Positions 45,098 through 49,741 of a stretch of 64,000 nt of DNA are shown in pieces. Origin of the DNA: Dictyostelium discoideum. Its lineage: Eukaryota. The translations under genes were made by a program, and so were the position numbers. Where the stretch lies: the NCBI GenBank assembly GCA_000004695.1, contig CM000153.2, positions 160,001 through 224,000 on the forward strand, read 5' to 3'. Under the pieces are notes generated by a model, which worked only from the letters and a program-made list of their open reading frames with translations, was not told the origin of the DNA and did not search any database. Numbering within the stretch: position 1 is the stretch's first letter; each line of letters starts with the position of its first letter.

Positions 45098-46531
45098 TTA
45101 AGAATATTTTTCTTTAAATTCAATTTTATTAATTGAAGGAGGAAAAGTTAAATTTAAATCTTTAAATGATATGTCCAAAGTAAGTAAATTAATTGATTTT
45201 GGTAATAATGAAAAATATGATACAATATGATCGAGTCTATGTAAATTTCTAATATAAAATTGAGTGTATGTTAAATGAGTTAATGATGGTGGTAGTATTT
45301 CAGGTTGAGTGATAAAACCATCAATTGAAAGTGATTCAACACTTGATGGAATTGCACCGATTTCTATTGGGTTTGAATTTGAAAATGAGCCCAAAAAAGT
45401 GAATTCAAGATGTTTTACACCAAATGGTATAACACCAATTTCAATTTTACTTTTAAAACTTTCTTTAAGTGAAAGAGTTGTGATATTCGGTGGTAATGAA
45501 CTTGCTTCATACAGTAGTGGTTTTAATTCATGATTGATAATTCTTAATTCTTTTATTGATGTTAATGTATTTAATAATGAATCTTTTTTAATACTATAAT
45601 TATTGTAAATATAAAGTTTTTCAATAGCCGGTGGTAAAACATCAAATTTACCAGGATCATTATTAAGATCATCATTATCGCCACTTTTAAATTTACTTCT
45701 TGCCCCATATGATATTGATAAATCTTTAATTGAATTTGGTAATATATCTTTACTTATTATATTTTTTAATTGAAAACGTGGCATTTTTAAAACCTCAATT
45801 CCATCTGGAAGATCACCTTTTCTTAAACATAGATTTTCATTTTCCCAATCAAAACCAAAACTTATCTCTTTTAAACCTTTTAATAAAACAACATATCCTC
45901 TACCTTTATCAACTCCTGAAATATTTGGTGAAACTTTTAAAAATACTGTATTAATATTTGATGGTATTATAAAACAAGAATTTTCAAATTCATCTTCTTC
46001 TTTTTTTTCTTTTTCATTTTCATTTTCTTTTTCTACACATTTTTCACTTTTTAAACTATTTTTTAATGATTCATCTTTTCCAAGTATAATTTGATTTATA
46101 GTTTTTAATGAAGATGGGAATGTTGAAATTTGAGTTTTAGAAAAAGAAAATTTATTGGCAACAATCCATGAGAAGTCCAATTTCTCAACACCAAATGGTA
46201 TTTTACTTCCATGTATATTAGCATGTATATAGTTTGTTAAATCTACCTCTTTTAATACACAACCAATTGGTAAATCACCAACTTCTAATAATTCATTACT
46301 TGAATAAAGCAAACAATGAATAAATTCTCTTTCTGGATATTCTAATAATTCTTTCCTACTTTTAAAAACTACCATTTCATTCTTTTCATATAATCTAACA
46401 AATCTAAATATATTTTTAAAAATCACTATATTACCCCAAACTTTATAAAATAATGAATTTTGTTTTTGTTCTTCTTTTTCTTTTTCTTCTTCTTCTTTCT
46501 CTCCTTTATCCTCTTTGTGACTATTTTCCAT
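45098..46531 (-). CDS. FNIP-repeat-containing protein, paralog 1 of a tandem trio (477 aa)
   Basis: It has an acidic K/E N-terminus, then repeated IP.S(V/I).L.(F/L)....(F/Y)N..I..G..P.S(V/L)..L units (…IPFGVEKLDFSW..., ...IPSSVESLSIDGFITQPEILPPSLTHLTY...), which are typical FNIP repeats. It is 60-70% identical to paralogs 2 and 3. Confidence 0.8.
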   Translation of the reverse strand: MENSHKEDKGEKEEEEKEKEEQKQNSLFYKVWGNIVIFKNIFRFVRLYEKNEMVVFKSRKELLEYPEREFIHCLLYSSNELLEVGDLPIGCVLKEVDLTNYIHANIHGSKIPFGVEKLDFSWIVANKFSFSKTQISTFPSSLKTINQIILGKDESLKNSLKSEKCVEKENENEKEKKEEDEFENSCFIIPSNINTVFLKVSPNISGVDKGRGYVVLLKGLKEISFGFDWENENLCLRKGDLPDGIEVLKMPRFQLKNIISKDILPNSIKDLSISYGARSKFKSGDNDDLNNDPGKFDVLPPAIEKLYIYNNYSIKKDSLLNTLTSIKELRIINHELKPLLYEASSLPPNITTLSLKESFKSKIEIGVIPFGVKHLEFTFLGSFSNSNPIEIGAIPSSVESLSIDGFITQPEILPPSLTHLTYTQFYIRNLHRLDHIVSYFSLLPKSINLLTLDISFKDLNLTFPPSINKIEFKEKYS

Positions 46532-46704
46532 TTTTATAATGATAAATTTTTTAATACATATAGCTATTTAAAAAAAAATAAAAAAAATAAGAAAATTTGA
46601 CCAATCAAAAATTTTCTTCTGCACTATTTTTTATTGTTGAAATTTTTTTTTTTTTTTTTTTTTTTATTAATAATTTATAAAGATTTTTTTTGAATTTAAT
46701 TATT

Positions 46705-48093
46705 TTATTTTTTATATTCAATTTTAGTGATTGAAGGAGGGAAAGTTATATTTAAATCTTTAAATGATGGGTGTAATGAAAGTGATGTAATTGATTTTGG
46801 TAATAATGATATATTGAATTGAATATCATCGAGTGTACCACCATCATCATCATCATCAAAAGTTTGACCATATGTTAAATGAGTTAATGAAGGTGGGAAT
46901 ATTTCAGGCTGAGTGATAAAACTATCAATTGAGAGTGATTCAACAGTTGATGGAATTGAATTTGAATCAATATCTGAAGAACTAATTGACAATTCAAGAT
47001 GTTTTACACCGATTGGTATAACACCAACTCCAAGCTTACTTTTAAAACCCTCAAGTGAAAGAGTGGTAATATTCGGTGGTAATGCACCTGCCTCAATCAA
47101 CAATTCATTCCATTCACAATTACAAATTCTTAATTCTTTTAATGATGTTAATGTATTTAATAATGAATCTTTTTTAATATCACAATGATGATTAATATAA
47201 AGTTTCTCAATAGCCATTGGCAAAACATCGAATTTGCCAGGCTCTTTATTAACATTATCACCATCACTTCTATATGTACTTCTACCATAGGACATTGATA
47301 AATCCTTAATTGAATTTGGCAAAATCCCATCACTTGTTATATTTTTTAATGGGTAGCCTGACATTGTTAAAATTTCAATTCCATCTGGAAAATCACCTTT
47401 TCTTAAACACACATCATCATTTTCCCAATAACAATCGAAACTTATATCTTTTAACCCCTTTGATAAAATCACATATCCCCTACCTTTATCAACTCCTGAA
47501 ATATTTGGTGAGTCATTAAAATAAACTGTATTAATATTTGATGGAATTATAAAACAACAATTTTCTTCCTCTTGCTCTTTTCCTTCTTGCTCTTTTTCTT
47601 TTTCTTGCTCTTTTTCTTCTTGTTGTTTTTTTTTATATTTATTTTTTCCAAGGAAAATTCCATTTATAGTTTTTAATGAAGATGGGAATGTTGAAATTTG
47701 AGTTCTTGGTATACTAGTATTATTACCTGACCATAAGAATTCTAATTTCTCAACACCAAATGGTATTTTACTTCCATCTATATTTGTATGAATATAGCTT
47801 GTTAACTCTACATCTTTTAATACACAACCAATTGGTAAATCACCAACTTCTAATAACTCATTACTTGTGTAAACTAAAAATTGAATAAATTCTCTTTCTG
47901 GATATTCTAATAATTCTTTCTTACTTTTAAAAACTACCTTTTCATTCTTTTTATATAATCTAACAAATCTAAATATATTTTTAAAAATCACTATATTACC
48001 CCAAACTTTATAAAATAATGAATTTTGTTTTTGTTCTTCTTTTTCTTTTTCTTCTTCTTTCTCTCCTTTATCTTCTTTGTGACTATTTTCCAT
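46705..48093 (-). CDS. FNIP-repeat-containing protein, paralog 2 (462 aa)
   Basis: It is nearly identical (well over 95% at the nucleotide level) to paralog 3 over most of its length, including about 170 bp of 3' flank and the 5' leader. It differs mainly at the extreme N-terminus (MENSHKEDKGEKEEEK... versus MDNDNRKQKQ...). Confidence 0.8.
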   Translation of the reverse strand: MENSHKEDKGEKEEEKEKEEQKQNSLFYKVWGNIVIFKNIFRFVRLYKKNEKVVFKSKKELLEYPEREFIQFLVYTSNELLEVGDLPIGCVLKDVELTSYIHTNIDGSKIPFGVEKLEFLWSGNNTSIPRTQISTFPSSLKTINGIFLGKNKYKKKQQEEKEQEKEKEQEGKEQEEENCCFIIPSNINTVYFNDSPNISGVDKGRGYVILSKGLKDISFDCYWENDDVCLRKGDFPDGIEILTMSGYPLKNITSDGILPNSIKDLSMSYGRSTYRSDGDNVNKEPGKFDVLPMAIEKLYINHHCDIKKDSLLNTLTSLKELRICNCEWNELLIEAGALPPNITTLSLEGFKSKLGVGVIPIGVKHLELSISSSDIDSNSIPSTVESLSIDSFITQPEIFPPSLTHLTYGQTFDDDDDGGTLDDIQFNISLLPKSITSLSLHPSFKDLNITFPPSITKIEYKK

Positions 48094-48181: not shown

Positions 48182-48292
48182 AAAAAAAAATAAAAAAAAA
48201 ATAAAAAAAATAAAAAAAATAAAAAAAATAAAAAAAAATAAAAAAAATAAAAAAAATAAAAAAAAATAAAAAAAATAAAAAAATAAGAAAAT
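48182..48292. repeat. (A7-8T)n minisatellite between FNIP paralogs 2 and 3
   Basis: About 13 tandem aaaaaaaat / aaaaaaat units. It is present in the 48.1-48.4 kb spacer but not in the equivalent 46.5-46.7 kb spacer. Confidence 0.85.
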
Positions 48293-48397
48293 TGGACCAA
48301 TCAAAAATTTTCTTCTGCACTATTTTTTATTTTTGGAATTTTTTTTTTTTTTTTTTTTATTAATAATTTATAAAGATTTTTTTTGAATTTAATTATT

Positions 48398-49741
48398 TTA
48401 TTTTTTATATTCAATTTTAGTGATTGAAGGAGGAAAAGTTATATTTAAATCTTTAAATGATGGGTGTAATGAAAGTGATGTAATTGATTTTGGTAATAAT
48501 GATATATTGAATTGAATATCATCGAGTGTACCATCATCATCATGAAAAGTTTGACCATATGTTAAATGAGTTAATGAAGGTGGGAATATTTCAGGTTGAG
48601 TGATAAAACTATCAATTGAGAGTGATTCAACAGTTGATGGAATTGAATTTGAATCAATATCTGAAGAACTAATTGACAATTCAAGATGTTTTACACCGAT
48701 TGGTATAACACCAACTCCAAGCTTACTTTGAACACCCTCAAGTGAAAGAGTGGTAATATTCGGTGGTAATGCACCTGCCTCAATCGACAATTCATTCGAT
48801 TCACAATTACAAATTCTTAATTCTTTTAATGATGTTAATGTATTTAATAATGAATCTTTTTTAATATCACAATAATGACTAATATAAAGTTTCTCAATAG
48901 CCATTGGCAAAACATCGAATTTGCCAGGCTCTTTATTAACATTATCACCATCACTTCTATATATACTTCTACCATAGGACATTGATAAATCCTTAATTGA
49001 ATTTGGCAAAATCCCATCACTTGTTATATTTTCTAATGGGTAGCCTGACATTGTTAAAATTTCAATTCCATCTGGAAAATCACCTTTTCTTAAACACACA
49101 TCATCATTTTCCCAATAATAATCGAAACTTATATCTTTTAACCCCTTTGATAAAACCACATATCCCCTACCTTTATCAACTCCTGAAATATTTGGTGAGT
49201 CATTAAAATAAACTGTATTAATATTTGATGGAATTATAAAACAACAATTTTCTCCCTCTTGCTCTTTTCCTTCTTGCTCTTTTTCTTTTTCTTGCTCTTT
49301 TTCTTCTTGTTGTTTTTTTTTATATTTATTTTTTCCAAGGAAAATTCCATTTATAGTTTTTAATGAAGATGGGAATGTTGAAATTTGAGTTCTTGGTAAA
49401 CTAGTATTATAGCCTGACCATAAGAATTCTAATTTCTCAACACCAAATGGTATTTTACTTCCATCTATATTTGTATGAATATAGCTTGTTAACTCTACAT
49501 CTTTTAATACACAACCAATTGGTAAATCACCAACTTCTAATAACTCATTACTTGTGTAAACTAAAAATTGAATAAATTCTCTTTCTGGATATTCTAATAA
49601 TTTTTTCTTACTTTTAAAAACTACCCTTTCATTCTTTTTATATAATCTAACAAATCTAAATATATTTTTAAAAATCACTATATTACCCCAAACTTTATAA
49701 AATAATGAATTTTGTTTTTGTTTTCTATTATCATTATCCAT
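48398..49741 (-). CDS. FNIP-repeat-containing protein, paralog 3 (447 aa)
   Basis: See paralog 2. It has the same FNIP repeat architecture. Confidence 0.8.
   Translation of the reverse strand: MDNDNRKQKQNSLFYKVWGNIVIFKNIFRFVRLYKKNERVVFKSKKKLLEYPEREFIQFLVYTSNELLEVGDLPIGCVLKDVELTSYIHTNIDGSKIPFGVEKLEFLWSGYNTSLPRTQISTFPSSLKTINGIFLGKNKYKKKQQEEKEQEKEKEQEGKEQEGENCCFIIPSNINTVYFNDSPNISGVDKGRGYVVLSKGLKDISFDYYWENDDVCLRKGDFPDGIEILTMSGYPLENITSDGILPNSIKDLSMSYGRSIYRSDGDNVNKEPGKFDVLPMAIEKLYISHYCDIKKDSLLNTLTSLKELRICNCESNELSIEAGALPPNITTLSLEGVQSKLGVGVIPIGVKHLELSISSSDIDSNSIPSTVESLSIDSFITQPEIFPPSLTHLTYGQTFHDDDGTLDDIQFNISLLPKSITSLSLHPSFKDLNITFPPSITKIEYKK

Follow-up and report, generated by a model that had tools for sequence, protein, structure and literature searches.

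The subject of this study is a tandem array of three FNIP-repeat genes in a 64,000-nucleotide stretch of contig CM000153.2 (NCBI GenBank assembly GCA_000004695.1, positions 160,001 to 224,000; below, the window, to which coordinates refer unless indicated), which exact protein look-ups identify as Dictyostelium discoideum AX4 and whose G+C content is about 20%. As the first-pass annotation of this DNA had proposed, the array consists of three paralogs, all of them complete open reading frames (ORFs) on the minus strand that match the Pfam family PF05725. They are referred to here as copy 1 (DDB_G0283089, 45098..46531, 477 aa), copy 2 (DDB_G0283091 / XP_639225, 46705..48093, 462 aa; the former identifier is taken from PMC4118049), and copy 3 (DDB_G0283093, 48398..49741, 447 aa). 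Along the direction of transcription, the gene order is DD3-3, copy 3, copy 2, copy 1, and then a convergent carboxylesterase gene. Both flanking genes, DD3-3 upstream (DDB_G0283095, 50212..52062, minus strand) and the carboxylesterase gene downstream (43029..44917, plus strand, two ORF pieces and an intron), are conserved and serve as anchors of the array.

Copy 2 is a chimera, in which a promoter of the copy 1 type and the MENSHKEDKGEKEEE leader are joined to a body and 3' spacer of the copy 3 type. The three units were aligned with their flanks, and informative sites were counted on either side of an 81-bp core that is identical in all three genes and encodes QKQNSLFYKVWGNIVIFKNIFRFVRLY (minus strand, 47953..48033 in copy 2, 49640-49720 in copy 3, and 46388-46468 in copy 1). 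On the 5' side of the core, copy 2 agrees with copy 1 and not with copy 3 at 35/35 variable sites, whereas on the 3' side it agrees with copy 3 and not with copy 1 at 213/221 sites (Fisher p = 9e-36 for the contrast). At the remaining eight of the 221 sites copy 2 matches copy 1, as expected for mutations specific to copy 3. Part of the 35 sites fall in the 5' flank, for which copy 3 has no true homology to the other two, and this itself supports the chimera point. No perfect match between copies 1 and 3 is longer than the one at this core, which for this pair measures 83 bp (next longest 44 bp; permutation p < 5e-5), and the switch of parentage in copy 2, hence the presumed crossover site, falls within the 81-bp core.

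The segments duplicated in this arrangement follow from the position of the core. Segment A (48034..49720, minus strand, 1687 bp) comprises the copy 3 body, the spacer between copies 3 and 2, and the copy 2 promoter and leader, and segment B (46469..48033, minus strand, 1565 bp) comprises the copy 2 body, the spacer between copies 2 and 1, and the copy 1 promoter and leader. Over 1553 aligned positions the two differ by 25 substitutions (98.4% identity), which are distributed evenly at 1-6 per 200-column window, and in addition there are four indels of 6, 3, 134 and 3 bp. Their identity is unbroken through the body of the coding sequence (CDS), the spacer, and the promoter and leader of the next gene. 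Divergence is homogeneous between the body (19/1311) and the non-coding part (6/242, p = 0.26), which fits one single event. Since copy 2 is chimeric, the duplication unit is offset from the gene boundaries, and this offset explains why the differences between the copies concentrate at the N-terminal leader. The first-pass annotation had noted that concentration correctly, but its cause is a sharp switch of parentage rather than scattered divergence.

Several other features of the array that had been read from the sequence at first can now be restated. Copies 2 and 3 are near-identical as described, with 98.4% identity in ungapped columns of the CDS, 21 mismatches, and 45 gap columns that come mostly from the differing leader; the GGTLDD/GTLDD difference between them is a genuine 6-bp indel. 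The identity of copy 1 to the other two had been put too low, at about 65%. At the DNA level it is 87% over ungapped columns of pairwise alignments, 82-83% by BLAST, and about 80% in the multiple alignment, and at the protein level it is 69-72%. Divergence between copies 2 and 3 is not both uniform and as high as that between copies 1 and 2, so the proposal of a recent duplication or gene conversion stands. The 3' flank reported to be shared by copies 2 and 3 is indeed found exactly twice, at 46529-46570 and 48091-48132 (0 expected by chance). This motif is the start codon and 5' leader of copies 1 and 2, and it therefore lies in the spacers downstream, in the sense of the genes, of copies 2 and 3. 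The 5' flanks, also thought to be shared, are non-homologous in these two copies and have in common only off-register matches of T-rich low-complexity sequence.

The spacer between copies 3 and 2 (48094..48397, minus strand, 304 bp) contains an expanded (T8A)n minisatellite of 11.8 units (48185-48291, minus strand) and a 37-bp element, CAATCAACTCCACCATTTCCACACAAAATTCACATCA (CAATCAACTCCACC...CACATCA; 48144-48180, minus strand). Its homolog between copies 2 and 1 (46532..46704, minus strand, 173 bp) retains 2.8 units of the minisatellite (46571-46595, minus strand), so that the repeat, first described as an (A8T)n array confined to one spacer, is present in both. The single spacer of the two-gene D. 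discoideum strains described below aligns with both AX4 spacers. It also contains the 37-bp element in both strains, and this element, shared with the spacer between copies 3 and 2, is thus ancestral. Two changes have taken place in these spacers. The spacer between copies 2 and 1 lacks about 134 bp, that is, most minisatellite units and the 37-bp element, owing to a deletion in the copy 1 promoter region, and the minisatellite upstream of copy 2 is expanded to about 12 units as compared with 2-3 in the two-gene strains. The suggestion that the minisatellite marks change after the duplication was correct in spirit and incomplete, as it covered one of the two. A second T-rich minisatellite was found in the copy 3 5' flank at 49806-49901, with units of about 18-23 bp (GATTTTATTTTTTTTTTT on the gene strand) in 3.5-5 copies. 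It lies at about the same distance from the ATG as the (T8A)n array upstream of copy 2, and the two are similar in composition and non-homologous.

Using the DD3-3 orthologs as anchors, we fetched the syntenic interval from eight other assemblies. Three FNIP genes lie between DD3-3 and the esterase gene in AX4 and also in the AX4-type assembly GCA_054883475.1, which is 99.78% identical to the window over 20 kb (BLAST). Two were found in each of the D. discoideum assemblies GCA_054859385.1 and GCA_054859355.1 and in D. firmibasis, and one each in D. citrinum and D. dimigraforme. The D. cf. discoideum assemblies have at least 5 (GCA_054859205.1) and 13 FNIP genes or fragments over about 26 kb (GCA_054859235.1). 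Thus the FNIP locus is prone to copy-number change, with 1 to 13 genes among close relatives. In the two-gene D. discoideum strains, gene 1 starts with MDNDNRE and ends with ITKIEYKK, as is typical of copy 3, and gene 2 starts with MENSHKE and ends with INKIEFKEKYS, as is typical of copy 1. These strains therefore carry exactly the unrecombined parental types that a model of unequal exchange predicts. On the outside, the two genes of these strains are bordered by sequence collinear with that next to copies 3 and 1, and the copy 3 5' flank in particular is collinear with the spacer between DD3-3 and gene 1; by position, copy 3, which has a promoter of its own and the MDNDNR leader, is the ortholog of gene 1, and copy 1 that of gene 2.

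In the neighbor-joining tree and by distances, copies 2 and 3 are sisters, 1.5% apart, gene 1 of the two-gene strains is 5.9-6.5% from both, and the clade of the copy 1 type is about 19-20% away. The single genes of D. citrinum and D. dimigraforme are outgroups in this tree and not reciprocal products of the exchange. The array of 13 (12645-21851 and 260-18317 of the two stretches taken from its locus) represents an independent burst with about ten genes of the copy 3 type. It includes one fragment of 220 aa and some members with internal stops or introns, and two ORFs that are not FNIP genes (121 and 299 aa) are interspersed on the opposite strand. The MVNSNKEEKEEEKERQKQNSLFYKVWG leader is identical in several of its members, suggesting that more unequal exchanges took place recently. 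The array in GCA_054859205.1 (12652-21851 of its locus) alternates in the tree between the copy 3, copy 1, copy 3 and copy 1 types, which implies that a whole two-gene unit was duplicated there, in another register of exchange than in AX4. Two of its members have many in-frame stops as called and represent either pseudogenes or mis-called introns. As for the taxonomy of these strains, GCA_054859385.1 and GCA_054859355.1, both labelled D. discoideum, differ from AX4 with a synonymous divergence (dS) of about 0.09 at DD3-3, and a D. cf. discoideum assembly differs with dS 0.11, little above them. Species labels within the D. discoideum complex may hide deep lineages.

Copies 2 and 3 have a dS of 0.012. 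In comparisons of AX4 with the two-gene strains, DD3-3 gives 0.092, gene 1 gives 0.118, and gene 2 gives 0.064, and for copies 1 and 3, which are old paralogs, dS reaches about 0.29. By comparison with the between-strain values, the age of the duplication is roughly one-eighth to one-tenth that of the split between the strains. A laboratory origin was considered and is ruled out, as a divergence of 1.6% is far too old for it. The first-pass annotation had offered either a very recent duplication or ongoing gene conversion. Of this, the duplication is borne out as a single event on the AX4 lineage, although it is not recent in absolute terms, with 25 substitutions and 4 indels since, and the main pattern can be explained without conversion.

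The 19 differences between the bodies of copies 2 and 3 were polarized with outgroups, one remaining ambiguous. Copy 3 has 13 derived changes, 12 nonsynonymous and one synonymous, and copy 2 has five, namely two synonymous and three nonsynonymous, of which L to I and V to I are conservative. Several of the changes in copy 3 affect conserved columns of the family alignment of 20 sequences: K249E (K in 18/20), F349V (F or Y in 20/20), K350Q (K in 17/20), and also L331S and W327S. The ratio of 12 to 1 departs from the usual omega of the family, about 0.4 (p = 0.015), and this pattern of substitutions suggests that copy 3 has been under relaxed constraint since the duplication.

We consider it very likely that one homology-driven unequal exchange turned an array of two genes into one of three on the AX4 lineage. 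The ancestral array would have consisted of a gene of the copy 3 type followed by a gene of the copy 1 type, between DD3-3 and the carboxylesterase gene. Non-allelic homologous recombination (NAHR) between misaligned chromatids or homologs of the AX4 lineage would then have brought one chromatid's downstream gene into register with the upstream gene of its partner. Resolution inside the longest perfect identity of the two paralogs, the 81-83 bp of the conserved N-terminal motif, would yield a tandem duplication of 1.6-1.7 kb, whose middle gene has the promoter and acidic leader of copy 1 in frame with the body and 3' spacer of copy 3. The units have since diverged by the 25 substitutions and 4 indels, one of these indels combining the deletion of about 134 bp in the copy 1 promoter with the expansion of (T8A)n upstream of copy 2. 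Constraint on copy 3 may have been relaxed when the same protein came to be encoded a second time, under another promoter. The recombination mechanism we infer from its product, and likewise the mitotic or meiotic nature of the exchange and any cellular function. Expression data are available from a published microarray study (PMC4118049), in which DDB_G0283091 and DDB_G0283089, but not DDB_G0283093, belong to a set of 16 genes whose expression correlates with that of cadA at r > 0.9, and this set, copies 1 and 2 included, is up-regulated at 4 h in chimeras. The co-expression of copies 2 and 1 without copy 3 fits, if loosely, a common promoter.

A number of points weigh against this scenario. 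The reciprocal deletion product was not seen among the genomes compared. The ancestral copy number is not firmly polarized, as both D. cf. discoideum genomes have larger arrays, and both two-gene strains used for comparison are quite divergent from AX4 (dS about 0.09 at DD3-3). A loss from three genes to two in the other strains, followed by homogenization in AX4, is a less parsimonious alternative. Selection in copies 2 and 3 is judged from 19 substitutions; the asymmetry of 13 to 5 between the copies is marginal (p = 0.096), and the 12 nonsynonymous to one synonymous changes of copy 3 are no different from neutrality (p = 0.22), so that positive selection on copy 3, which was also considered, is not demonstrable. 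The microarray of PMC4118049 may be subject to cross-hybridization, and it was applied to wild strains whose copy number may differ from that of AX4.

Among other explanations, a chimeric duplication that arose by a replication route, that is, template switching, break-induced replication, or re-replication with single-strand annealing at the 81-bp identity, survives best, though we regard it as unlikely. Homology-guided template switching or break-induced replication leaves an identical structure, namely tandem copies joined within a short tract of identity, and the sequence as such does not discriminate between this route and a crossover. Vegetative D. discoideum is haploid, and chances for exchange exist mostly between sister chromatids or at replication forks, which speaks for a replication route. 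On the other hand, the junction is a clean homology of 81 bp, with neither the microhomology-only joints nor the inserted bases or inverted segments typical of fork stalling and template switching (FoSTeS) or microhomology-mediated break-induced replication (MMBIR).

Quite improbable is an old array of three genes that was homogenized by conversion, the copy 2 body and 3' spacer having been overwritten by copy 3, and its promoter and leader having been overwritten by, or having overwritten, those of copy 1, while the two-gene strains lost a gene. Arrays of more than two genes do exist in the species complex, as in the D. cf. discoideum genomes, and the 5' conserved stretch bears some marks that conversion could leave: AX4 copies 1 and 3, whose dS elsewhere is about 0.29, do not differ there at any synonymous site, and in the codon at the variable position of LF[Y/N]KVWG both paralogs of GCA_054859385.1 and of GCA_054859355.1 share the derived AAT, whereas AX4 copies 1-3 and the outgroups have TAT. 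This TAT/AAT site is the one shared derived site inside the core. Outside the core, orthologs cluster by type across strains in the tree, so that conversion is at most local, and the sequences hint at such local conversion within the 5' core. Conversion of the whole unit would require at least two tracts that abut at one point, span about 1.6 kb including intergenic DNA, and are of the same age (p = 0.26), and in addition independent gene loss in the other strains, which nevertheless hold precisely both unrecombined parental types. Nor is there a trace of an older distinct copy 2 sequence anywhere in the unit, since 213 of the 221 sites match copy 3 and the other eight match copy 1. Finally, an error of assembly, by which one repeat was mis-expanded into near-identical copies, can practically be dismissed: the reference is not flawless nearby (a 100-N gap at 41974-42073), but the independent AX4-type assembly GCA_054883475.1 contains all three genes on a 5.58-Mb contig, encoding proteins identical to those of the window, and mis-expansion of one repeat would not give units that differ by 25 substitutions and 4 indels.

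The proteins encoded by the array score 65, 72.1, and 67.8 bits against PF05725 (cutoff 21), with 2-3 matching stretches each. A homolog search at E <= 1e-10 retrieved only 23 relatives, all from the D. discoideum species group and all 23 with a precomputed PF05725 annotation; the next paralogs beyond this subfamily are 28-29% identical. A profile of the subfamily compared with the PDB matched the solved FGxxFN leucine-rich-repeat (LRR) protein Crov588 (6nyr; E = 1.7e-41, 6 stretches). The AlphaFold2 model (predicted local distance difference test, pLDDT, 81.7; predicted template modeling score, pTM, 0.77) forms a ladder of some 18 short strands, and its best Foldseek matches are CroV588 (E = 1.5e-10), the CroV FNIP protein 7zal, TLR8/9, LGR4/5, and COI1. 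The template modeling scores of these matches are low (0.3-0.45), as is usual for solenoids differing in curvature, and the structure compared is a predicted one. The proteins are thus predicted to be FNIP-type LRR solenoids, and presumably they serve as protein-binding modules.

Crystal structures of the FNIP / FGxxFN LRR proteins CroV588 (6NYR) and of the CroV protein 7ZAL are available (Huyton et al. 2022, PMC9525666). The canonical FGxxFN motif has no match in any of the three AX4 proteins. The motif hPxx[ILV]xx[ILV] occurs 12 times at an irregular spacing of 19-52 residues, without a regular 22-residue period. Judging by these motifs, the repeats are of a degenerate FNIP/'LP' type, within the broad Pfam FNIP family and outside the canonical FGxxFN subclass of PMC9525666. 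The C-terminal sub-motif of the copies is likewise of the 'LP' type reported there to be typical of Dictyostelium members. Unlike the canonical proteins, the AX4 copies contain an acidic low-complexity insert in the middle of the protein, and their subfamily is confined to the D. discoideum group. No signal peptide, transmembrane-like or strongly hydrophobic segment was found in the three proteins, and they are therefore probably soluble. An F-box or other N-terminal domain was also considered and rejected, as Pfam found FNIP only. The E/K-rich leader gave a sub-threshold match to BEX (18.3 bits with a cutoff of 26.1), and the N-terminal helix of the AlphaFold2 model is of low confidence.

Some neighboring features of the window deserve mention. 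The DD3-3 gene has a G+C content of 37%, well above the approximately 20% of the window, and between strains it is under strong purifying selection, with a ratio of nonsynonymous to synonymous divergence (dN/dS) of 0.04-0.09, as compared with 0.35-0.7 for the adjacent FNIP genes. Upstream of it lies an unrelated gene of the FNIP family (approximately 54585-55998, plus strand, with the last-exon ORF at 55591-55986), which as called in GCA_054859385.1, GCA_054883475.1, and GCA_054859355.1 encodes a zf-B_box and FNIP protein of 406 aa. Its repeats are nearer to the canonical form (e.g., LLDGFNQAISELP), and in the loci of the D. cf. discoideum assemblies GCA_054859205.1 and GCA_054859235.1 it is either missing or cut short to 122 aa. 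On the other side of the array, the 100-N gap lies within a retroelement. At this position GCA_054883475.1 (19946-21851 of its locus) has an ORF with Exo_endo_phos and RVT_1 domains, that is, a retrotransposon without long terminal repeats (non-LTR). The element is absent from the syntenic position in GCA_054859385.1 and GCA_054859355.1, where CfaA_B_C and DHHC genes are found instead. A tRNA-like fragment, GCTCAGCGGTAGAGC... with the T-arm-like GGTCATCAGTTCGAGCCTG (42319-42432, minus strand), adjoins the retroelement and the gap. ARAGORN, run with or without introns, found no tRNA gene at 42.0-42.4 kb, and the only Rfam match of the fragment is YrlA, below threshold (27.5 bits with a cutoff of 69). 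The fragment could represent a tRNA gene, either degraded or unusual, that was used as a target by the retrotransposon.

Duplications by unequal crossover that create a fusion gene are known from the anti-Lepore hemoglobin delta/beta locus, Drosophila Bar, and the opsin arrays. As in these cases, the AX4 array is a head-to-tail direct repeat of variable copy number, its middle gene combines the 5' part of one paralog with the 3' part of the other by one switch inside an identity tract, and the parental two-copy arrangement is still found in other genomes. Unlike them, it resides in a haploid amoeba, and no reciprocal deletion allele was seen. The AX4 fusion also differs in that the frame is kept in a conserved N-terminal motif, and the change is confined to the promoter and some 20 residues of acidic leader. 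A literature search on copy-number variation of tandem arrays in Dictyostelium turned up only Bloomfield et al. 2008, who described duplications of at least 15 kb in laboratory stocks, unlike the FNIP duplication in scale and age.

By analogy only, the array also resembles the plant nucleotide-binding leucine-rich-repeat (NLR) clusters and the nematode F-box arrays: it is a tandem LRR array with lineage-specific bursts and birth-and-death, and its dN/dS is raised relative to the neighboring gene (0.35-0.7 vs 0.05-0.09 for DD3-3). In contrast to those clusters, no NB-ARC, TIR, F-box, or other effector domain was found by Pfam, and the proteins appear soluble. Another FNIP-repeat gene of D. discoideum, chtB (DDB_G0290617), yields a social cheater when knocked out (PMC3559258); it shares with copies 1-3 the broad repeat family and the organism, and differs in being a separate gene on another chromosome. 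It is conceivable, though to us doubtful, that the FNIP array is a rapidly evolving locus of recognition or social conflict in the D. discoideum complex, variable in copy number, where unequal exchange at the 5' motif would time and again shuffle promoters and LRR bodies. If so, copy 2 would have put a binding surface of the copy 3 type under the early-development, chimera-responsive promoter of copy 1, and copy 3 would be free to diversify, as its 12 nonsynonymous and one synonymous changes might reflect.

The genes and the family considered here were already annotated and the mechanism is a textbook one, so that neither a new mechanism nor a new protein family is described. There are practical consequences for work on these genes: given the 98.4% identity of copies 2 and 3, whose differences lie mainly at the 5' ends, short reads and probes will cross-map, and homologous-recombination constructs may target the wrong copy or collapse the array. 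What the locus offers is a dated and polarized case, in a model organism, of a new gene made by unequal exchange with a promoter swap, of which both states are sequenced. With its range of 1 to 13 copies, it is suited to measuring the dynamics of tandem arrays and the fate of young duplicates in Dictyostelium.

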